Shown: positions 9,482 to 20,692, numbered from the stretch's first letter. The stretch is DNA of 20,692 nt from an uncultured Eubacteriales bacterium (GCA_964478905.1 CAYZJZ010000004.1:1-20692), one strand, 5' to 3'. The notes: generated by a model from the letters alone, not told the origin. Translations and numbers: made by a program.

Positions 9482-9501
9482 CCTAATAAGAGGTGATAAT
9501 A

Positions 9502-9675
9502 ATGACAGATAAAGAACTTTTATATGTAGAAGATGCGTTAGGTCACGAAAAATTTATGGAAACAAGTAGTCAAAAAGCTTCCGTTCAACTTCAAGACCCA
9601 ACACTCTCAACATATATGGAACAACTCCAAACAAAGCACAATGAGCTTTACAACAAATTTTTAAACTTATTATAG
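9502..9675 (+). CDS. Small hypothetical protein (57 aa), partner of the Coat-F-like protein
   Basis: RBS AGGTGA lies 5-6 nt upstream of the ATG at 9502 (MTDKELLYVEDALGHE...). It is tightly linked to the next gene by a 9-nt gap. Confidence 0.6.
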   Translation: MTDKELLYVEDALGHEKFMETSSQKASVQLQDPTLSTYMEQLQTKHNELYNKFLNLL

Positions 9676-9684
9676 GAGGTTATT

Positions 9685-9927
9685 ATGGAAGACAGAAACT
9701 TAATAGAAGAACAATTATTAGTAATAAAAGGCGTATCTGACCTTTATATGCATGGTGCTATTGAATCTTCTACCGCAGAAGTACATTCAGCATTTAAAGA
9801 CGCTTTAAATGAAACCTTAGACATTCAAAATAAGATTTATAATCTTATGAGCGAAAAAGGTTGGTATAAAACAGAAACAGTAGCTCAAAACAAAATCGAC
9901 ACTACAAAACAAAAATTCTTAAATTAA
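9685..9927 (+). CDS. Coat F domain (spore coat protein F-like) protein
   Basis: LLVIKGVSDLYMHGAIESSTAEVHSAFKDAL...IQNKIYNLMSEKGWY matches the four-helix Coat_F pattern ending in the conserved GWY. RBS GGAGG. Confidence 0.7.
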   Translation: MEDRNLIEEQLLVIKGVSDLYMHGAIESSTAEVHSAFKDALNETLDIQNKIYNLMSEKGWYKTETVAQNKIDTTKQKFLN

Positions 9928-10037: not shown

Positions 10038-10469
10038 TTAGTAAAGTTTCAATATAAGAAAAATTCCAAAAATAAACGCAATAAGTTCGCATAAAATCAA
10101 ACTTCTTTTAATTCTATCCGTTTTTCTTCTATGTCTTGCAAAATTCAAAATAATGCTCATAGTACAAACACATATACAAACAATGGTAACTACCAAAGAA
10201 ATTTTTAGTAAATTCGCTCTCCAAAATTCAATAGGTAGCCAAAGCAATTGGTTTTTATTAATATATGCCACACTTCGACCGGCTTTAGTTATTATGGCCA
10301 AAACTATAAACAAAGCTCCCCACAGCCAAAAGCTCATCAAATTTATAAACTTTAAAATTCCATCGTCGCCCTTTCTTCTCTCCGGCGGTATAATAACTTC
10401 TCTTTCATTTTGATCTAATGACTTTTTTATCAAATTAGCTTGTATTTCATCAAACTCAGATCTATTCAT
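10038..10469 (-). CDS. Small polytopic membrane protein (143 aa), function unknown
   Basis: A charged N-terminal ~40 aa is followed by 3-4 hydrophobic helices. Its ATG shares a base with the stop of the upstream SLH gene (TAATG overlap at 10467-10471), implying translational coupling. Confidence 0.7.
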   Translation of the reverse strand: MNRSEFDEIQANLIKKSLDQNEREVIIPPERRKGDDGILKFINLMSFWLWGALFIVLAIITKAGRSVAYINKNQLLWLPIEFWRANLLKISLVVTIVCICVCTMSIILNFARHRRKTDRIKRSLILCELIAFIFGIFLILKLY

Positions 10470-11011
10470 TATTTCTCACCTTTTATTTTTACATTCATAC
10501 TATTTACTAACATAACACTTACTTCTCCTCTTGTCATAAGATGAGAAGACTCCATATTTTCTAACTCAACATTTAGCTTTAAATCATGAGCCTTATTCAT
10601 CACGTTAGTAGGCCAAGCTCCCTCTATTTCATCGCTATATCCAAGTAAATTTACCAATATCGAACAACATTCAGCATAAGTAATATTATTAGACGGTCTA
10701 AAAGTACCATCTTCATATCCCTTTAAGAAACCTAATTCAGCCGCTCTATTTATAACACCATATGCCCAATGATTTTCCGCAACATCAGAAAATCTACTCT
10801 TTTCAGGAGCTTGATTTTTTCCTATCATTCTTATTATTATAGAACAAAACTCTGCTCTTGTAATATTATTCTCAAGTTGTAGTGTCCCATCAGGATAACC
10901 ATTTAATAGTTTCATTTTTACCAACACATCAGCCGAATCTTCTACAACTCCGGCAAACGAATATGTAAACATTAGCATTACAATTAAAAAACTGCAAATA
11001 ATTTTTCGCAT
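10469..11011 (-). CDS. Secreted S-layer-homology (SLH) domain protein consisting only of a signal peptide plus three SLH motifs
   Basis: Signal peptide MRKIICSFLIVMLMFTYSFA. Canonical SLH motif FSDVAENHWAYGVINRAAELGFLKGYEDGTFRPSNNITYAE, flanked by two further SLH-like motifs (GYPDGTLQLENNITRAEF and HLMTRGEVSVML). RBS GAGGATGTGA. Confidence 0.82.
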   Translation of the reverse strand: MRKIICSFLIVMLMFTYSFAGVVEDSADVLVKMKLLNGYPDGTLQLENNITRAEFCSIIIRMIGKNQAPEKSRFSDVAENHWAYGVINRAAELGFLKGYEDGTFRPSNNITYAECCSILVNLLGYSDEIEGAWPTNVMNKAHDLKLNVELENMESSHLMTRGEVSVMLVNSMNVKIKGEK

Positions 11012-11031
11012 AAAATCACATCCTCAAATTT

Positions 11032-11060
11032 ATATTACTATTTTCAAAATTTCGAGTCAA
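11032..11060 (-). promoter_or_regulatory. Candidate internal sigma-A promoter for the SLH / membrane protein pair
   Basis: On the minus strand: -35 TTGACT (11055-11060), a 17-nt spacer, and -10 TAATAT (11032-11037), in the 62-nt gap after the AAA+ gene. Confidence 0.5.
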
Positions 11061-11073
11061 TGGAAATTATTGA

Positions 11074-14000
11074 TTACATCTGTTCTATATCTTGAGCTTC
11101 TATATAAGTTAATATCTCTTGAGTAAATTCTGCACTTTGTGAAATTCTAACAGCTTGGTTACTTACAGCTCTTTCAAATATATTTCTAACATATCTTCCA
11201 TTACCAAATTTATAATTCCCACGAGCATTATCAAGAACCTCAATTAACTTATTAACAGCATCATTCGAAAGTTTATATCCGTTACTTTCAAACATTTTAG
11301 TACCAATTTCAACAAGCTCCTCCAAGTTATAATCCTGAAACTCAACAACATTCGGGAAACGTGACTTAAGACCTGGATTTATATCTAAAAAGTCTTGCAT
11401 TTCCTTCGTATATCCAGCAAGAATTACAACTAAATTATCCCTATTATCATCCATCAATTTTAATAGTGTATCAATAGACTCTTTGCCAAAATCATTTTGT
11501 CCACCTTGAGACAATGTATATGCTTCATCAACAAACAAAACTCCACCCAAAGCTTCTTTAACTTTTTCAGTAGTCTTTATCGCAGTTTGCCCAACGTACC
11601 CGGCAACCATACCGGCTCTATCAGTTTCAACAACCTTACTTTGTTTTATTATCCCTAAATTATATAATAAATTCGCAACAGCTCTAGCCATCATAGTTTT
11701 TCCTGTCCCGGGATTACCTGTAAATATCATATGAAGCGTTTGAGTATTATTAACAATAAGTCCGGCTTTTTTTCTCTCTTGCATTACTTTTATTCTCGCA
11801 GCCAAAGCTCGAATATAGTTTTTCACAGTTTCAAGTCCGACAATCTTATCAAACTCTTCTTCATAATTAAATTCCTTTTTCTCCAGTTCTTCAATTTCAC
11901 CTAAATCCTCAATTAAAACTTTATTTATTTCTTCTGTCGTGACATCATTTTTAACAATTCTATCACTTTGATTTCTCAATATCTCATCAACAAAGTTCCT
12001 AACCATTCTTCCGTTACCGGATGATGCAGTTGCGTTTTTATGCATATCCTTAATCTTTTCAAACGCTATCCCTTTTGCATCATTATCCAAAACAAAACCT
12101 TTAGAAACAATCATAAGATTAAATATATCAAATAATTCCTCAGCAGAATAGTCAGGGAAATCAATAGAAATAGGGAATCTCGATTCAAGCCCTGAATTAG
12201 CATTCAAAAATTCTTTCATTTCTTTTTTATAACCAGCAAGAATAACAACAATTTCTCCTTTATAATCTTCAACAAGTTTTACTAAAGTATCTATTGCCTC
12301 ACGTCCAAAACTATCTCCATCAGACGCCAAAGCATATGCCTCATCTATAAACAAAACTCCGCCCAATGCATCTTTAAAAACTTCGGTAGTCTTTATCGCA
12401 GTTTGTCCAACATATTCAGCTACTAGCTTTGATCTATCAGCTTCAATCAGTTGTCCACCCTTTAATACTCCCATCTCTTTTAACATATTAGCAGTTATTC
12501 TGGCAACCGTCGTTTTTCCTGTTCCGGGATTTCCCGTATATATCATATTTAACGACTGAGAAGTATCAACAACAATTCCGGCTTCCTTTCTTTTTTGTTG
12601 AGCCTTCAATACATTATATTGTTTCCGTAAAAAATCTTTTACATTTTCAAGCCCTATTACCTTATTTAGTTCACTTTCAAGATCAAATTCTTCCTTTTCC
12701 TCAAGCTCAAAATCAGATAACTTAAGCAACTCATAATCAGTTTCATTTTCTTCATTTATCCTTTTGGACTGGTTTAAAATTGCTTTTTCAACCATATTTC
12801 TAGCCAATCTTCCATTTCCAGTATCATTTCTTCCTTTTATATTCTTCCCCTCAAAATAAGTTATAAGCGGTTCTATACAACTATTGTCTATTACATATTG
12901 GTTAGACACAGCAATTTCATTAGCAATTCTATACATTTCCTCCGGTGTATAATCAGGAAATTCAATATTATTCGGGAACCTCGATTTAAGTCCGGGATTA
13001 CTTTTTAAGAACTCTTGCATTTCATTGGTATATCCGGCAAGAATAACAACTAAATTATCTTTATTGTCTTCCATCATTTTTACCAAAGTGTCAATAGCCT
13101 CAAGTCCAAAACTATCATTCTTATCTCGGTTTAAAGCATACGCCTCATCTATAAATAAAACTCCACCAAGAGCAGAATTTACTTTCTCCGTCGTCTTTTT
13201 AGCAGTTTCTCCAAGATGCTCACCAACTAAATCTCCACGACTAACTTCTACAAATTGCCCCTTAGATAAAATTCCAAGCGCAGCTAAAAATTCAGAAACT
13301 AATCTCGCAATAGTAGTTTTACCAGTGCCGGGATTACCTGAAAAAATCATATTCATAGAAATAGCAGCCGTCTTTAATCCGGCTTCCTCTCTAAGCTTTC
13401 TTGTCGTCATAGTATCTTCAAGCTTTAATACATATTCCTTTACCGAATCAAGTCCAATAATTTTATTTAATTTGTGCTTTACTTCTTCAAGATTTATATT
13501 CTTTTCTTTATGATTAAATTTTTGAAGTGAAATCAAATTATCTTCAACCAAAATTACAATCTCATTTTCAACAGCACCTAAAACCACTTCCGTATCCAAA
13601 GGCGCAGTTCTCTTTAATTTAAACTCCGTAAGAGGACGATAAATATTTCTATCCATCCATAAATTCAAACCATTTAACCCGGTTCTTTTGGTATAAACAT
13701 TTCTTAAAAAATCAATCAACATCCTATCGTATGTAAGTGGAATTGATAATTCAGCCCTCGCCTTTAACACCATCGTATTTATCAAGCTTTGAATCATCTT
13801 TAATATATCTTCTTCACTTAACTCATCAATAGTTAATACATCAATAACTTTCTCAAAAGCATCTTCACCGAAAAATGGTATAAATTCCTCTACATTTCCG
13901 GAAGAAATTAAAACAAAATATTTATTATTAGAATTAACAACAATATTACCATTATTAGTAGGAATTACGCAGTTCCCTTTTTTTATGATTTCAGCAATTG

Positions 14001-14955
14001 TTTTCCTCACATTGCTATTTCCGGCTTTAAAATCTTTAAAAACAATTATTTCTGTTGAACTATTAAGTATATTCATCAATTCAGCTACAAATTGACCAAA
14101 TGTGCTATCTTCATTATATAAACTCAAATCAATAAATACTTCTTTACCTTGAATTAAAGTTTCTTCAAACATCAACTTCGCAATTTCTGAAATCATAGAA
14201 CTTACAAATACGCTTTCAGAAGTTAATACACAAATAGTATTTTTTAAAAGATTAGGAGCAGTCTCAATTACAAAAGGTCTTTTAAACGCAACAAGTAAGT
14301 TAGTTAAAAACTCACTTTGCCCTAAAAAATTTCCAACAACTTTTTGATTTATTTTATTAAAAGTCTCATCTATATCAATCTTTTTTACTTCTTCTTTCGT
14401 TTTCTCAGGCTTAAATAAAGCATTTATTCTATCTTCCGTATACTCAAAAGTAGTTTTATAAAAGTCTAATATTTTTTGTTGCTCATCATTTATAGAATTA
14501 CCAATAGACGCAACCGAATAGAACAAGTAAAATAAATTATCCTCAGCCTTTTCTTGTTCTTGCATTAATCTATCCGAATATATCATATCTAAAAGTTTTT
14601 TTAGCGCAACAATACTATCCTTGTATGTATTTTTGCTAATTCCGAAAAAAGTTTTTTTCTCAGAACTGTACAAGTTAAGAATATCTTTATACTGAAGTCT
14701 CGTTAGCTGTTCATTTTTTATAAAGCTATCCACAACTTGATCACATTTATCAATATTTTCCTCGCTATGTCTAGCAATATTTCCAAAAACAGAAACAATA
14801 TAGCAAAGCATTTCCGGAGCAATTTCCTCAGACTTATAAACTTTATTATTTCTATATCGAAATTCATTTTTACAATAAGGACATATTAAAGTGTTACCGC
14901 CCTTTTCCATTCCCATAGTTCTATTACAATACGGACAAGTTATTGATTTCGGCAT
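11074..14955 (-). CDS. Giant multi-AAA+ ATPase: N-terminal zinc ribbon, helical (TerB-like?) region, degenerate Clp-D2-like AAA domain, and three tandem CbbX/SpoVK/EccA-type AAA+ modules
   Basis: CPYC-x14-CPYC at aa 7-29. Walker A GNPGTGKT occurs three times (aa 540, 809, 1080), and each copy is followed by GGVLF(I/V)DEAY (Walker B). Each is also followed by VVILAGY..EM..FL..N.GL.SRFP...F.DY and a GNGR..RN sensor-type motif, the hallmark layout of the CbbX/SpoVK family. RBS AAGGAGG. Confidence 0.9.
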   Translation of the reverse strand: MPKSITCPYCNRTMGMEKGGNTLICPYCKNEFRYRNNKVYKSEEIAPEMLCYIVSVFGNIARHSEENIDKCDQVVDSFIKNEQLTRLQYKDILNLYSSEKKTFFGISKNTYKDSIVALKKLLDMIYSDRLMQEQEKAEDNLFYLFYSVASIGNSINDEQQKILDFYKTTFEYTEDRINALFKPEKTKEEVKKIDIDETFNKINQKVVGNFLGQSEFLTNLLVAFKRPFVIETAPNLLKNTICVLTSESVFVSSMISEIAKLMFEETLIQGKEVFIDLSLYNEDSTFGQFVAELMNILNSSTEIIVFKDFKAGNSNVRKTIAEIIKKGNCVIPTNNGNIVVNSNNKYFVLISSGNVEEFIPFFGEDAFEKVIDVLTIDELSEEDILKMIQSLINTMVLKARAELSIPLTYDRMLIDFLRNVYTKRTGLNGLNLWMDRNIYRPLTEFKLKRTAPLDTEVVLGAVENEIVILVEDNLISLQKFNHKEKNINLEEVKHKLNKIIGLDSVKEYVLKLEDTMTTRKLREEAGLKTAAISMNMIFSGNPGTGKTTIARLVSEFLAALGILSKGQFVEVSRGDLVGEHLGETAKKTTEKVNSALGGVLFIDEAYALNRDKNDSFGLEAIDTLVKMMEDNKDNLVVILAGYTNEMQEFLKSNPGLKSRFPNNIEFPDYTPEEMYRIANEIAVSNQYVIDNSCIEPLITYFEGKNIKGRNDTGNGRLARNMVEKAILNQSKRINEENETDYELLKLSDFELEEKEEFDLESELNKVIGLENVKDFLRKQYNVLKAQQKRKEAGIVVDTSQSLNMIYTGNPGTGKTTVARITANMLKEMGVLKGGQLIEADRSKLVAEYVGQTAIKTTEVFKDALGGVLFIDEAYALASDGDSFGREAIDTLVKLVEDYKGEIVVILAGYKKEMKEFLNANSGLESRFPISIDFPDYSAEELFDIFNLMIVSKGFVLDNDAKGIAFEKIKDMHKNATASSGNGRMVRNFVDEILRNQSDRIVKNDVTTEEINKVLIEDLGEIEELEKKEFNYEEEFDKIVGLETVKNYIRALAARIKVMQERKKAGLIVNNTQTLHMIFTGNPGTGKTMMARAVANLLYNLGIIKQSKVVETDRAGMVAGYVGQTAIKTTEKVKEALGGVLFVDEAYTLSQGGQNDFGKESIDTLLKLMDDNRDNLVVILAGYTKEMQDFLDINPGLKSRFPNVVEFQDYNLEELVEIGTKMFESNGYKLSNDAVNKLIEVLDNARGNYKFGNGRYVRNIFERAVSNQAVRISQSAEFTQEILTYIEAQDIEQM
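11131..13473 (-). repeat. Three tandem paralogous coding modules of about 0.8 kb (AAA+ modules 1-3) inside the giant ATPase gene
   Basis: Module 1 is about 12751-13473, module 2 about 11941-12672, and module 3 about 11131-11859. DNA-level echoes are visible, for example CTCATCTATAAA(C/T)AAAACTCC near 12340 and 13141, and GTAGTCTTTATCGCAGTTTG(C/T)CCAAC near 11570 and 12388. Confidence 0.7.
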
Positions 14956-15018
14956 TCTTACGCCTCCTTAAAAATTCTACTCCGAATATTTAAATCGGCA
15001 TTTTTAAACAAATCTTAA

Positions 15019-16848
15019 CTATTCCATATCTTTTCTATCAGTAGTAATCAACTTATATTCTTCTTTATTAGCTTCAATTTTCGCCATAATATGATTTTTT
15101 CCGGCAATAAGCAATCCATTTCCTCTTTGTAAAGTTTTTATTTTTATTTCTTCTTCAGTCGATAAATTCACCACATCTTTCAATATCTTACTGTCTTCTT
15201 CTTCAACTTGCAAAATAAATTTCAATGTTGAATTATTTATAATTGCCCTTCCGTATTTTCCACCCTCAAAATCAAAAAAATCCGCAACATCTTGAGTTAT
15301 AGCTGTAGCTCCTCCACCAAATTTTCGTATGGTTTTAAAAATTTTATACACAAACTCAGCAGTATATAAATTCCCTGTACTCCCGATAAGTCTCCAAATT
15401 TCGTCCATATATATAACTTTTTTCTCAGCTCTGTTTTCACAAATTTTATCCCAAAACAAATCCACAATTATATACATACAAATAGGCATATATCTTTCTT
15501 CAAGCTGATGAATATCAGCCACAATTAATTTATTATTAAAATCAACATTAGTACGCCTATTTAAAAAAGACAAACTTCCAAAAATATAAGGCTTTAATAA
15601 AACAGATAATCTTTTTGTTTTATCATCGCTATCAAGTTCATAATATAAATCTTCTAAAATCGGCATATCCTCAGCACTTTTAAAACGCTTTTTTATACTT
15701 ATTTTTTCACATTCTTTATATAGAGTATCATCATCAAAAGTTATTCCAAATTTTAAATAACAATTAATTAACTTTTCCTCTAAAAAAACTTCTTCCTCAT
15801 TTGTCATTTCTCCAAATACCAAACTAAAAAACGTCTTCAATTTTTTTAATTTACTACTCAAATAGCCTCCATTTTCCTCCAAAGCACATTCCCTAATATC
15901 CATAACATTTATAAATGTACTCGACAACGAATTAACATTTATATACAAACCATTTAACGCTTTACATACTTTAGAATATTCTCCATCAGGATCAACAACA
16001 AATTGCCGTATGCCCATATATCTATTCCTTAAAATCATTAATTTAACAAAAAACGATTTACCAGCTCCGCTAGTCCCAAGTACACACATATTCGCATTTT
16101 TATATTTTGAACTATCAAATCTATCTATTATTATAAGAGACTTACTTTGGGAATTTTGACCTATTAAAATTCCTTCTACATCATACAATTCGGTGGAAAT
16201 AAACGGATATGTGCTAGATAGCGATTCAGTTAATACATTTTTAACAGCAGCTTCTTTAATATCTCTATCGTTATTACATACAGGTAACATAGAAGAAAAA
16301 ACTTGTTCTTGTCTAAAAATCGCTCTCCTCGTTTGTAGACCCATTGAAGCACAAATCGCCTCTAATCTTTCTAAGTTAATTTTTAATTGCTCAAAATCTT
16401 TTTCATATACCATACAATACATACATAAATGATATAACTCCTCTTTATTTACTTGAATTTGGTTTCTTATGTATTTAGCATCTTCATATGAGCTTTTTAT
16501 TATATCTATGTCCTGTTGATTTTGGCTTACAGTTTTTAACGCGCCACCCATATCTCCTATATGATATGTTATCTCTCTAATAACCTTCCCGGACTCAAGC
16601 TTTTCATAGAAAATACTCATATCCACATTAAAATCCAATGAAATAAGCGGGGAAAGCCAATTTACCCTCTGTTCCTTAGGATAATTAACAATAATTAAAC
16701 CGGAGTAAAAAAAATTATCCATCTCAAAATAACTGGGATTACTAAAATTCATAACATCCGGAAGTATAAAATCCAACATATCGTTTTTACAAAATCCAAA
16801 TTTATTTAATTCCTCATAATTTTTTATTTTTATATTTTTATTTTTCAT
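15019..16848 (-). CDS. VirB4/TrsE/Orf16-like type IV secretion ATPase (C-terminal ATPase portion)
   Basis: Walker A LGTSGAGKSF (aa 257-266, nt about 16054-16077), Walker B VIYMDEIWRL, and ATAITQD. The N-terminal PDVMNF..YFEMDNFFYSGLIIVNYPKEQRVNWLSPLI matches the 'gyP..v..gWl..L' region typical of Gram-positive conjugative VirB4 proteins. Confidence 0.82.
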   Translation of the reverse strand: MKNKNIKIKNYEELNKFGFCKNDMLDFILPDVMNFSNPSYFEMDNFFYSGLIIVNYPKEQRVNWLSPLISLDFNVDMSIFYEKLESGKVIREITYHIGDMGGALKTVSQNQQDIDIIKSSYEDAKYIRNQIQVNKEELYHLCMYCMVYEKDFEQLKINLERLEAICASMGLQTRRAIFRQEQVFSSMLPVCNNDRDIKEAAVKNVLTESLSSTYPFISTELYDVEGILIGQNSQSKSLIIIDRFDSSKYKNANMCVLGTSGAGKSFFVKLMILRNRYMGIRQFVVDPDGEYSKVCKALNGLYINVNSLSSTFINVMDIRECALEENGGYLSSKLKKLKTFFSLVFGEMTNEEEVFLEEKLINCYLKFGITFDDDTLYKECEKISIKKRFKSAEDMPILEDLYYELDSDDKTKRLSVLLKPYIFGSLSFLNRRTNVDFNNKLIVADIHQLEERYMPICMYIIVDLFWDKICENRAEKKVIYMDEIWRLIGSTGNLYTAEFVYKIFKTIRKFGGGATAITQDVADFFDFEGGKYGRAIINNSTLKFILQVEEEDSKILKDVVNLSTEEEIKIKTLQRGNGLLIAGKNHIMAKIEANKEEYKLITTDRKDME

Positions 16849-17419
16849 ATATACCAGTTCCTATACCCTGAATTTCCGAAATATTTCTATTTAATTCTTT
16901 ATATAAATTATTTATTATGTAAAAGTTATCTTCAGCTAAATCCACAACTTCATTTCCGCACTTTTCCAACGCAATTTTTATCTTCAAAGTTTTCTCTTTT
17001 AAATCTTCACACGCCATATCTCTTGAAATCTTTTTATTACCATTTACCTCAGCAAAGAAAACAACAAAAAACTTACGCGTAATTGTATTTTTTAACGTTT
17101 TCTCATTTACCATTTTTACATATTCATTTCCAAGGAACTTTAACGTATCAGAATTTTCGCTTTCAATATTTTTTAAAACACTAGAAATATGAGCATCTAA
17201 ATCGTTTTTCTTACTTTTAATTAAAATTTGTATTGTAAAATTACAAGTTTTCAAAAAAGTCTTATACGAATACAAAATAGTTTCCTTTTCCTCAATAGAC
17301 TTCAACTCAAAATTTATAGGTAATATTTCAAGTATCTTTAAAAATTCACCATTTTTGTTTTCTATAATTCCATTACTTATATTTTTTATAGGAAACCAAC
17401 TTTTTATAGATTTTCTCAT
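16838..17419 (-). CDS. VirB4 N-terminal-domain-like protein (193 aa), encoded separately
   Basis: WFPIKNISNGIIENKNGEFLKILEILPINFELKSIEEKETILYSYKTFLKTCNFTIQILIKS parallels the N-terminal region of Tn916 Orf16-type VirB4 proteins (IPY..v..nGmIe...g.fsk...l.d.NF...s.deQe.if..y..fLn). The ATG at 17419 follows GGAGG. It overlaps the next gene by 11 nt. Confidence 0.6.
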   Translation of the reverse strand: MRKSIKSWFPIKNISNGIIENKNGEFLKILEILPINFELKSIEEKETILYSYKTFLKTCNFTIQILIKSKKNDLDAHISSVLKNIESENSDTLKFLGNEYVKMVNEKTLKNTITRKFFVVFFAEVNGNKKISRDMACEDLKEKTLKIKIALEKCGNEVVDLAEDNFYIINNLYKELNRNISEIQGIGTGIYEK

Positions 17420-17723
17420 TTTTATCCTCCGTTTTTCTATACACATATACCCTTTCTTTTATAAAAAACTTAATAGCATATTTCATAATATCCATCATAT
17501 TTTCGCCATTTATCCCAACAAACATAAAAATAGCAGGAAACAAAGTAAATATCAAAAAAATACACACTTTTATTTTTATATTAATTTCAATCGCCTTTAG
17601 CAAATAAAAAGCACAGCTCCCTAAAATACCAATAACAAAAATCGCCCTGTAATCAAAAACTCCTAAAAATTTTTCTTTCTTATTATAATTTTGCGGAAAA
17701 AAATATACCTTTTCTTCTTTCAT
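17373..17723 (-). CDS. PrgI-family (VirB3-like) small membrane protein, 116 aa
   Basis: From the ATG at 17723 (RBS GGAAGTGA): a short polar N-terminus FPQNYNKKEKFLGVFDYRAIF, then two TM helices, then GINGENMMDIMKYAIKFFIKERVYVY. This is the same layout as the PrgI/Orf17-type proteins that precede VirB4 in Gram-positive T4SS loci. Confidence 0.65.
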   Translation of the reverse strand: MKEEKVYFFPQNYNKKEKFLGVFDYRAIFVIGILGSCAFYLLKAIEINIKIKVCIFLIFTLFPAIFMFVGINGENMMDIMKYAIKFFIKERVYVYRKTEDKNEKIYKKLVSYKKYK

Positions 17724-17849
17724 TTTTATCACTTCCAACAAAATTTTACACAAAACAGAAGTCATATTCTGTCGAAGTTTGTCGTGGACTTGAAATTTTT
17801 TTGTTGCCATTCGAATTTACTTATTTTTTTATTTGCATGCTTTTTTAAA

Positions 17850-17878
17850 TTGACAAACTCTGCTACAATAGATAAAAT
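17850..17878 (+). promoter_or_regulatory. Near-consensus sigma-A promoter
   Basis: -35 TTGACA (17850-17855), an exact 17-nt spacer, and -10 TAAAAT (17873-17878). It drives the 31-codon ORF and probably the FAD oxidoreductase gene. Confidence 0.55.
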
Positions 17879-17911
17879 ATAGTGTAAATAGAAAATAAGG
17901 AGTGATTTTGC

Positions 17912-18007
17912 ATGGCATATTATTTTAGTGAACCATCAAGAACTTTTAGTGAATATTTACTTGTTCCAAACTTAACTACACGTGAGTGTACACCGGATAA
18001 AATTTAA
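17912..18007 (+). pseudogene. 31-codon N-terminal remnant of an IMP dehydrogenase/GMP reductase-family gene (MAYYFSEPSRTFSEYLLVPNLTTRECTPDKI)
   Basis: RBS AAGGAGTGA lies 6 nt upstream of the ATG at 17912. TFSEYLLVP mirrors the conserved N-terminal (L)TF(D/S)(D/E)(V/Y)LL(V/I)P motif of IMPDH-family proteins. The frame stops after 31 codons with no IMPDH-like coding sequence downstream. Confidence 0.5.
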
Positions 18008-18072
18008 AACAAGTAGCTATAGAACTCACGATGTAATTTTAAAAAATGAAAATATTTAGGAGAGTGTAATTA

Positions 18073-19999: not shown

Positions 20000-20692
20000 T
20001 TAAATTAAAATAGCTCCTATTTGATTTATTATCAATAAAATAGCTCCTTGCATGTATAATGAAAAATACATAAACGAAGTAATAGAATAAATTTCTCCTT
20101 CTACTTTATTAATAAAATCATTAAGGCTCTTTTCATCTACTTTATCTTTCAAAAAATCATATGCAACCTTAGGCGCACGGTATGTAGCATCACTTTCGGT
20201 TATAACTTTCAACATAAAAGTTATTACAAATATAAAAATTTGAATAAGTAAAAGCGTTAATCTCACACTTTCTCGCTTATCATAAAAGAAATAAAGAAAA
20301 GTTCCTAAAAAGTACAAAATATTTATATTAGAAAAAACAAAATGTAACTTTAAAATTCGCTTATCTTGAATACTGTGAACACACTCATGGCATATTTGAA
20401 TAAGCCTTGAACAATCTTTTAAATCTTTAGTATTTTTTATAACAATTTTGTCACTATTTACATTATAAAAACTAGTTTTTTCATTTTCCTCTTTATTTTT
20501 TTCTACACTTGTAGTATAATTATTAAGTTGTTGTAAAACACTAGTGGTAATTACTTGATTATCTCCTAATTTTTCAACTATAGGAGAAATAGTTTCATCA
20601 TATATAACCTCATTCCCATTAGTTTTTTTATAACATATCCAAAACAGGATAGCCGTGCAAAGTATAGAGCTTAATACTAAAATATAATACAT
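20000..20692 (-). CDS. Membrane protein with an HExxH motif (putative zinc metallopeptidase-like); its start coincides with the window edge
   Basis: N-terminal TM anchor, CHECVHSIQ (HExxH), and then 3-4 TM helices. It lies 11 nt upstream of dut on the same strand. The upstream region is not visible, so the start is unverified. Confidence 0.55.
   Translation of the reverse strand: MYYILVLSSILCTAILFWICYKKTNGNEVIYDETISPIVEKLGDNQVITTSVLQQLNNYTTSVEKNKEENEKTSFYNVNSDKIVIKNTKDLKDCSRLIQICHECVHSIQDKRILKLHFVFSNINILYFLGTFLYFFYDKRESVRLTLLLIQIFIFVITFMLKVITESDATYRAPKVAYDFLKDKVDEKSLNDFINKVEGEIYSITSFMYFSLYMQGAILLIINQIGAILI

Follow-up and report, generated by a model that had tools for sequence, protein, structure and literature searches.

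A probable domesticated type IV secretion motor beside a separable AAA+ cassette in an uncultured Eubacteriales bacterium

The ATPase VirB4 is universal to type IV secretion systems (T4SSs), in which VirB3 anchors it to the membrane. On the plasmids pGO1/pSK41 and pIP501 the corresponding genes are ordered trsC-trsD-trsE and traC-traD-traE, and some conjugation-derived machines are chromosomal, for example the ComB system of Helicobacter pylori, which has neither a relaxase nor a type IV coupling protein (T4CP). TrsD is a free homologue of the VirB4 N-terminal domain, to which it is remotely related, and is essential in the Saccharibacterium Southlakia epibionticum (PMC12102498). The chromosomal T4SS of the Patescibacteria (candidate phyla radiation, CPR) is relaxase-less, derived from the MPF-FATA class, situated near dnaA/dnaN, and comprises TrsD, PrgI, VirB6 and VirB2-like pilins (Quinonero-Coronel et al. 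2025, PMC12102498; see also Wang et al. 2023, as cited in PMC12102498 and PMC12857230). Its origin-proximal placement has been explained by a gene-dosage effect (PMC12102498). A 2025 review regards it as the only one of its kind among monoderm systems, one that needs no relaxase, may form a pilus and is required when the cells grow on their host, and states that VirB2 has not been found in Gram-positive T4SSs outside the Patescibacteria systems (PMC12857230). Here we describe six genes on the minus strand in DNA from an uncultured Eubacteriales bacterium; the whole stretch analyzed, 20,692 nt (GCA_964478905.1 CAYZJZ010000004.1:1-20692), is called the window, and the cluster was first noted at positions 10038-17723. 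We consider it reasonably probable that the locus is a composite, in which the motor of a domesticated, relaxase-independent T4SS (a PrgI/VirB3-like protein, a TrsD-like protein and VirB4, in the following the trio) stands beside a separable, lineage-specific cassette with a giant AAA+ protein.

The region 17726-15019 is predicted to encode a PrgI/VirB3-like protein, a TrsD-like VirB4 N-domain and a VirB4 ATPase. These assignments had been proposed in an earlier note on this DNA and were upheld by profile and structure searches, though the PrgI-like protein itself remains below the Pfam threshold. The VirB4 open reading frame (ORF) matched Pfam P-loop_TraG with 89.5 bits (gathering score 25.8) as well as AAA_10 and DUF87, its closest solved structure is the C-domain of the Thermoanaerobacter VirB4 (PDB 4AG5, E = 2e-47), and the Walker A (GTSGAGKS) and Walker B (DE) motifs are invariant in 15 family members. 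It also matched positions 183-751 of the NCBIfam model conju_CD1110 (317.9 bits, cutoff 325), while the TrsD-like ORF matched the N-terminal positions 11-148 of this model weakly (E = 6.6e-7, 28 bits). Because the two ORFs cover the N-terminal and remaining parts of one model, they represent a split VirB4, and the VirB4 ORF falls below the equivalog cutoff as a single protein since its N-domain is a separate ORF. The match of the TrsD-like ORF to NF041427 TrsD was likewise weak (E = 1.9e-6, 27.8 bits versus a cutoff of 200); against the hidden Markov model (HMM) of cluster C2 from related loci it scored 172 bits, and PF26593 TraC-like is recorded for its product in the 99.5% identical contig L173. 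The PrgI-like ORF reached 18.2 bits with Pfam PrgI (E = 0.0036, gathering score 27) and 90 bits with the HMM of cluster C12, which holds its homologues at related loci. This family (C12/D4) sits in an operon of T4CP-like, pilin-like, polytopic and VirB3-like genes in sister genomes.

The VirB4 family turned out to be widespread in uncultured gut Clostridia. A word-indexed, non-exhaustive search of 5.8 billion proteins gave 2504 matches among the scored candidates, and the best 120 were all about 600 aa long, at least 49% identical and nearly all from metagenomes or from metagenome-assembled genomes (MAGs) of Clostridia. In a scan with one genome per GTDB species, relatives of VirB4 were found in at least 268 species-level genomes; the best 80 of these all belong to uncultured Clostridia, including Clostridium sp. 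CAG:567 and CAG:571, Ca. Merdicola and Ca. Scatovivens. Gene neighbourhoods were counted at these 80 loci after ORF calling and clustering. The calling was simple (longest ORFs of at least 60-70 aa), so that small genes may be missed and some small clusters may be spurious, the comparative data consist of MAGs and contigs throughout, and several neighbour annotations were made by eye. A TrsD-like gene precedes virB4 at 70 of the 80 loci, a ParA/MinD/CbiA-like ATPase of about 400 aa follows it at 65, and a protein of about 240 aa without family comes next at 55. At loci with enough flanking sequence, gyrB lies within five genes upstream of virB4 in 56 of 63 cases and gyrA within five genes downstream in 45 of 59. 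The usual order is dnaA-dnaN-recF-gyrB-TrsD-VirB4-ParA-like-240aa-gyrA (Pfam-labelled example L004; also L013, L021 and most of the loci L010-L089). The same origin-proximal layout occurs at locus L179, where VirB4 is only 43% identical; hence the placement of the trio between gyrB and gyrA is probably ancestral.

Beyond gyrA and dnaI/dnaB, the sister lineages carry a second operon with the order T4CP-like, pilin-like, polytopic, VirB3-like, dnaB (DnaB_2) and dnaI. Its T4CP-like gene encodes about 570 aa with TrwB_AAD_bind (40 bits) and TraG-D_C matches and invariant Walker motifs, the pilin-like gene about 110 aa with a T4SS_pilin score of 26.2 bits just below the gathering score of 26.6, the polytopic gene about 290 aa without family match as a candidate for VirB6, and the VirB3-like gene about 95 aa belonging to one family with the PrgI-like protein of the window. 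The pilin-like and polytopic genes lie about 5-8 kb from virB4 in the sister clade. Hence, the VirB3/VirB4 module, which the earlier note had called an orphan, is not truly one at the level of the family, where T4CP-like, pilin-like and polytopic genes lie some kilobases away. An alignment scan of metagenomes with the T4CP-like protein yielded 453 contigs, on which the operon begins at the T4CP-like gene (loci L093-L172); the genes recurring upstream of it, as judged by eye, are SDR, an XRE-type regulator, VanW-like, ComEA, an LCP protein and a PBP5-type carboxypeptidase. By eye, no recurrent neighbour of the sister loci resembles a relaxase, an integrase or a cell-wall hydrolase. A ComEA-like gene stands directly upstream of the T4CP-like operon, together with LCP-family and PBP5-type genes, in L162, L165 and L169-L172, and a type IV pilin-like gene lies less than 10 kb from this operon in L103-L108 (both by eye). 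Two loci with identical VirB4 protein, L179 and L180 (both 16500-21791), differ in the sequence downstream of gyrA: L179 carries the T4CP-like operon, L180 in its place genes for a phage-type integrase, a SocA/Panacea-domain protein and an N6 methyltransferase, pointing to the insertion of an island beside gyrA.

Compared with the described systems, the relaxase-less, origin-proximal T4SS of the Patescibacteria appears to be the closest analogue. Alike are the monoderm MPF-FATA-type VirB4, the separate TrsD-like protein, PrgI/VirB3, the chromosomal location and the lack of a detectable relaxase; in the sister Clostridia the likeness extends to the position beside dnaA/dnaN, the VirB2-like pilin candidate, the polytopic VirB6 candidate and the T4CP-like gene. 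This likeness is one of gene content and order, and the host is here a member of the Bacillota, from the uncultured gut Clostridia. Moreover, the pilin is a single gene in Clostridia and an array in Patescibacteria, and the near-constant ParA-like neighbour and the interleaving with gyrB/gyrA and dnaB/dnaI set the Clostridia apart. The window itself holds only VirB3, TrsD and VirB4, with no pilin or VirB6 candidate found there or in close relatives, and dnaA is not in the window, its proximity being seen in sister lineages. The trs and tra regions of pGO1/pSK41 and pIP501 (MPF-FATA, pGO1 subclass) share with the window the small VirB3-like protein, the TrsD-like protein and VirB4 in the same order, but here no relaxase, T4CP, hydrolase or VirB8-like gene was found nearby, the genes appear chromosomal and vertically inherited, and plasmid VirB4 proteins are at most 34% identical. 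The component list of the archaeal Ced DNA-import system in PMC11868833 gives four entries, among them VirB4, a pilin and a VirB6-like protein, and no T4CP-like ATPase. Judged by such lists of components, Ced and ComB resemble the Clostridia family as chromosomal, relaxase-less, conjugation-derived machines with VirB4, small membrane proteins, a pilin and a VirB6-like protein, while the sister Clostridia lineages differ from both in having a T4CP-like ATPase.

All six genes of the cluster appear to be maintained under purifying selection. The ratios of non-synonymous to synonymous substitution rates (dN/dS) against the orthologous locus L001 were 0.11 for the PrgI-like, 0.09 for the TrsD-like and 0.07 for the VirB4 gene, 0.08 for the AAA+ giant, 0.15 for the SLH gene and 0.06 for the 143-aa protein, compared with 0.01-0.06 for neighbouring housekeeping genes; at about 80% DNA identity dS is near saturation, so that the values are only approximate, but all clearly lie far under 1. 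The range of 0.06-0.15 bears out the earlier claim of maintained function rather than decay. Families were scanned for in all remaining window ORFs of at least 100 aa, and none of the scanned ORFs matched a relaxase, integrase or transposase. A relaxase, integrase, hydrolase or coupling protein was found neither in the window nor in the roughly 10-kb flanks of close relatives (Pfam labels and T4CP-like HMM), and the same holds for a VirB6-like gene, in line with the earlier note, which had recognized none of these locally. Among about 160 related loci no recurrent neighbour cluster resembled a relaxase, as judged by eye from cluster representatives and Pfam labels. Locus L181 is colinear with the whole window. 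Pairwise identities of VirB4 and GyrA co-vary over 44 genomes (Pearson r = 0.87, the pairs not being independent), which favours vertical descent, and the best plasmid VirB4 is only 34% identical to that of the window. These two observations together argue that the VirB3/TrsD/VirB4 family is a chromosomal, vertically inherited one and not a decayed integrative and conjugative element (ICE). The flanks of the cluster hold housekeeping genes, with no mobility genes found among them.

The six co-directional, tightly packed genes were all recovered by ORF calling on the minus strand between 10038 and 17810, in the order given by the earlier note (Table 1). Successive ORFs overlap by 47, 11 and 1 nt or are separated by gaps of 63 and 62 nt in an AT-rich window (26-38% G+C). 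The PrgI-like protein probably starts at 17726, where a GGAAG ribosome-binding site precedes Met29 and the alignment with the family HMM begins at residue 36. The TrsD-like protein probably starts at 17419 with GGAGG before Met10, which gives the same length as called in L173. The gap between virB4 and the AAA+ gene was said to lack a convincing terminator, and the terminator scan agreed, finding no terminator-like site inside it. A small hairpin in the gap lacks significance (z = -1.8), is not kept in L001 or L092 and was rejected as terminator or attenuator, and the ribosome-binding site of the AAA+ gene is conserved in both loci. Co-transcription of the AAA+ gene with virB4 is plausible in the window lineage, as judged from this sequence.

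Table 1. Positions of the cluster genes, the domains of the AAA+ giant and adjoining regions in the window.
Feature	Position	Strand	Remarks
PrgI/VirB3-like small membrane protein	17373..17726	-	117 aa from Met29; mechanical ORF reaches 17810
TrsD/TraC-like protein, free-standing VirB4 N-terminal domain	16838..17419	-	193 aa; mechanical ORF reaches 17446
VirB4-type ATPase, C-terminal two thirds of split VirB4	15019..16848	-	609 aa
VirB4/AAA+ spacer, 63 nt	14956..15018	-	AGGAGG ribosome-binding site, no convincing terminator
AAA+ giant	11074..14955	-	1293 aa
Zinc ribbon, giant residues 1-41	14833..14955	-	Invariant cysteines, weak Pfam matches
Helical domain without family, giant residues 42-194	14374..14832	-	AlphaFold2 model
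Degenerate AAA+ module, giant residues ~195-485	13501..14373	-	Without P-loop
Three tandem SpoVK/CbbX/EccA-type AAA+ modules, giant residues 486-745, 746-1015, 1016-1293	11074..13500	-	Pfam AAA + AAA_lid_6 in each of the three
Secreted SLH-domain wall-binding protein	10469..11011	-	180 aa
Polytopic membrane protein	10038..10469	-	143 aa; ATGA overlap with SLH gene, translational coupling
Region upstream of cluster, divergent from FAD-oxidoreductase gene	17727..18072	.	Apparent guaB (IMPDH) deletion scar

The architecture claimed for the AAA+ giant, i.e. a zinc ribbon, a degenerate AAA domain and three CbbX/SpoVK/EccA-type modules, was borne out by Pfam, motif and Foldseek searches. The cysteines C7, C10, C25 and C28 (CxxC...CxxC) of the ribbon are invariant in 10 homologues; this part matched Pfam IBR_1 and Zn_ribbon weakly, forms beta-hairpins in the AlphaFold2 (AF2) model and gave short IBR/RING2-like Foldseek matches. 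The following helical domain comprises seven helices with a predicted local distance difference test score (pLDDT) of about 90. It had no Pfam match and nothing at E < 0.8 in a Foldseek search of the PDB, and the idea that it is TerB-related found no support, the TerB-like structure 2h5n aligning only with E = 6 (TM score 0.3-0.4). In the AF2 model of residues 1-486 (pLDDT 82), residues ~195-480 adopt an AAA+ fold without P-loop, which matched the second nucleotide-binding domain (NBD2) of ClpB (4lj4; E = 1.6e-12, TM score normalized to the target 0.65), and the motif search found no Walker A in this module. The three live modules have Walker A motifs (GNPGTGKT) at 540, 808 and 1080 and Walker B motifs (VLF[IV]DEA) at 599, 867 and 1139. 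SpoVK is the top NCBIfam model for each of them with 288-308 bits (cutoff 423), followed by EccA with 206-256 (467) and CbbX with 206-235 bits (459), so that none reaches an equivalog cutoff. The closest PDB entries are CbbX 3ZUH (E = 3e-58) and EccA1 9LUR (E = 6e-55), and like these proteins every live module combines AAA with AAA_lid_6. The N-terminus of EccA is a TPR domain, and CbbX and SpoVK have no extra N-terminal domain. The giant, by contrast, begins with a zinc ribbon and a helical domain, joins three to four modules in one chain (two live ones in close relatives), and lacks a RuBisCO, type VII secretion system (T7SS) or defined sporulation context. The two genes that follow are present as described before, an SLH wall-binding protein (Pfam SLH E = 5.8e-22 in two stretches) with a single signal-like hydrophobic segment at residues 3-24, then the coupled 143-aa membrane protein with 3-4 hydrophobic segments, which is 90% identical in L001 and matched nothing in Pfam, NCBIfam, PADLOC or PHROGs. 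The SLH gene was found only in the window lineage (L001, L002, L181 and, partially, L173).

Whether all six genes form one system is the main point to be weighed against the composite locus. The earlier note regarded VirB4 and the triple-AAA+ protein as one ATPase-driven envelope machine. In it the CbbX-type unfoldase would stand in for a coupling protein and supply substrates to the VirB4 motor, comparable to EccA and EccC, and the SLH and membrane proteins would be further parts. Such a machine seems to us unlikely, while being the strongest of the rivals. For it speak the co-directional genes, the short gap with a conserved ribosome-binding site and no terminator, the purifying selection on every gene and the vacancy for a second ATPase, since no T4CP-like or ParA-like gene was found nearby in the window lineage. 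In this regard, the giant adjoins virB4 not only in the window but also in L001-3, L173, L181, L092 and L178, i.e. down to 70% VirB4 identity (L092) and at 66-100% AAA+ identity (66% in L178, where it lies about 660 nt past the 3' end of virB4), despite differing genes past the AAA+ gene. However, the giant was the neighbour of virB4 at none of the 80 species-level loci of the family, where a ParA-like ATPase usually takes this place, and adjacency of the two was seen only in the window and the relatives just named. In the MAG GCA_017934955.1 the trio is on contig JAGBIO010000016.1 and a full-length giant of 1296 aa (58% identical) on a different contig, JAGBIO010000035.1, where it has an amidase gene on one side and, on the other, two small genes and then recG. 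At 58-63% VirB4 identity no giant accompanies the trio, which is followed instead by flagellin and recJ or by PemK and ComM genes in convergent orientation; the flagellin gene, 431 aa in L009 and L010, is unrelated. Moreover, close relatives (L181:10001-13069, P0133, P0131; VirB4 of L181 81% identical) encode at the same position a giant of only 1022 aa with two live SpoVK-type modules, and a protein of 706 aa that shares the N-terminus but has a single AAA module lies beside a GGDEF gene on a 5.5-kb contig without VirB4. Hence, the module number of the giant appears plastic between close relatives, and the giant itself seems to be an evolutionarily separable neighbour rather than a core partner of VirB4. 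A search with its N-terminus gave three proteins and missed clear orthologues; this and the full-length search are both limited by the word index, and the rarity of the giant is to be read as a lower bound. Homologues of the SLH and 143-aa proteins were not found beside the more distant giants in L176-L178, which also speaks against one system. Finally, the analogy to type VII secretion found no specific support. No EccC/FtsK-type ATPase or T7SS family was matched among the scanned window ORFs, VirB4 reaching only 15.2 bits with FtsK_SpoIIIE (gathering score 24).

Some points nevertheless weigh against the composite locus with its T4SS motor. The window lineage, in which the trio stands beside FAD oxidoreductase, IMPDH and dUTPase genes, is a derived arrangement. 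VirB4 is 81-100% identical to that of the window in L001-3, L173 and L181, 70% in L092, 63% in L009 and L010 and 58% in L007 and L008, and VirB3 is directly upstream of TrsD in every relative with upstream sequence save L181, where no such gene was called. In six-frame translations, neither the window nor L001-3, L007-10 or L092 (about 10 kb) gave a match to the HMM of the T4CP-like, pilin-like, polytopic, ParA-like or 240-aa protein, and the trio could here act alone or be a functional remnant. The persistent adjacency of the AAA+ gene to virB4 together with the missing terminator makes a lineage-specific functional link between the two possible. In addition, PrgI and T4SS_pilin fall short of their Pfam gathering scores, no family matches the VirB6 candidate, and the evidence consists of sequences from MAGs and contigs.

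The remaining explanations fare less well. It appears improbable that the giant is an expanded SpoVK paralogue which acts with the SLH and membrane proteins in maturation of the spore envelope, the trio being a component of a developmental channel. SpoVK is the best model for all modules, a CotF-domain gene adjoins the cluster (9685-9927) and a CtpB-like protease is encoded near the module in L009, but the modules score far under the SpoVK cutoff, hydEFG break the adjacency of cotF in L001 and L002, no sigma-factor or spo genes lie within the cluster, and across the family VirB4 is accompanied by T4SS-like and replication genes rather than sporulation genes. Even less can be said for an anti-phage defence system made up of HerA/VirB4-like and AAA+ ATPases, which we regard as very improbable: the weak partial PADLOC matches of VirB4 (mad8, DndH/HerA) and of the AAA+ modules (IetA, TRIP13) are confined to generic P-loop/AAA regions without a full component set, the PHROGs search of the cluster proteins gave generic ATPase matches only, no nuclease, protease or other effector partner was found, the genes do not lie in a variable island, L181 being colinear over the whole window, and the family belongs to the vertically inherited core. 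The weakest reading, a decaying ICE remnant with the AAA+ gene as cargo, can point to VirB4 being nearest to the conjugative CD1110 family and to the mere three usual conjugation genes in the window, but is hardly credible given trio dN/dS values of 0.07-0.11 with intact catalytic motifs, a module kept across hundreds of species in fixed housekeeping contexts, co-divergence of VirB4 with GyrA, the distant plasmid homologues, and no integrase, tRNA gene or Rfam match in the whole window.

The flanks of the cluster contain ORFs matching Ddl, a MurF-type ligase, an alpha/beta hydrolase, a MiaB/RimO-type radical-SAM enzyme, a glycosyltransferase, MgtC, MurA, an MBL-fold protein, an FAD oxidoreductase and a dUTPase, and the family scan gave no significant match for the 230-aa ORF at 20000-20692. 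A 60-aa ORF (9493-9675, plus strand) precedes the 80-aa CotF-domain gene, which is also on the plus strand, and a 57-aa gene is called at the equivalent position beside cotF in L001, L002 and L181; the two may form a small gene pair associated with the spore coat. The hydE, hydG and hydF genes for [FeFe]-hydrogenase maturases and a TM1266-like gene separate the 143-aa gene from cotF in L001:16994-20971 and L002:12776-16758, and are not in the window. At the other end, L173 has an extra 1370 bp (L173:2831-4200), comprising most of a 499-aa IMPDH/guaB gene, between window positions 18003 and 18022. In L173 this gene separates the FAD-oxidoreductase gene from the PrgI-like gene, and the junction in the window (18003-18022) keeps an overlap of about 20 bp, i.e. 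it represents a strain-level deletion of guaB or else an assembly artefact. Several lineages share, near the VirB4 or AAA+ locus, genes for a 177-192-aa protein, a PemK-type toxin and a YdcC-family protein (L007:6129-9358, L009:20111-21800, L178:4742-7936), and in L007 and L178 a ComM-like Mg-chelatase gene comes next.

Starting from the observed homology, gene order, distribution, selection and separability, the following picture of the composite locus may be drawn. The genes at 17726-15019 would supply the motor, anchored in the membrane, of a monoderm (MPF-FATA-like) T4SS that has been domesticated and does not depend on a relaxase. According to the roles of VirB3 and VirB4 in the T4SS literature, the VirB3/PrgI-like protein would tether a VirB4 hexamer, with the VirB4 N-domain supplied by the separate TrsD-like polypeptide. 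In sister lineages the trio would work with the ParA-like ATPase, the coupling-protein-like ATPase, the VirB2-like pilin candidate and the polytopic VirB6 candidate, and it may energize an envelope-spanning channel or pilus assembly, with export or import of a substrate and not plasmid or ICE transfer. The interleaving with gyrB/gyrA, dnaB/dnaI and, at some loci, ComEA hints at DNA as this substrate. The genes at 14955-10038 would form the lineage-specific cassette of the four-AAA+ protein, with one dead and three live modules, the SLH protein and the small membrane protein. By analogy to CbbX and EccA, the giant is most likely an ATPase that remodels or unfolds proteins in the cytosol, and its zinc ribbon and helical N-terminus would serve as recognition part. 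A bolder scenario, which we hold to be rather unlikely, assumes that in the window lineage the multi-AAA+ protein took over the role of the second ATPase, which ParA-like and coupling-protein-like ATPases have in sister lineages, in a reduced VirB3/TrsD/VirB4 machine, the CbbX-type unfoldase handing unfolded proteins to VirB4, and that small-genome gut Clostridia possess a Patescibacteria-like, possibly essential, origin-anchored and pilus-forming T4SS or even were the donor of the Patescibacteria system.

A description of this T4SS family of Clostridia was not found in the literature searched. To judge from its genes, it would be, after the Patescibacteria systems, the second case of a VirB2-like pilin among the T4SSs of Gram-positive bacteria. 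The AAA+ giant is of interest on its own, since its chain of four AAA+ modules varies in copy number from one close relative to another. Collectively, a core of TrsD, VirB3 and VirB4 very similar to that of the Patescibacteria appears to be fixed in the chromosomes of a large clade of uncultured gut Clostridia. If functional, it would imply that domesticated conjugation machines are more widespread in the Bacillota than thought, it would be a candidate source of the Patescibacteria system, and it would offer a second, independent setting for asking what relaxase-less T4SSs transport.

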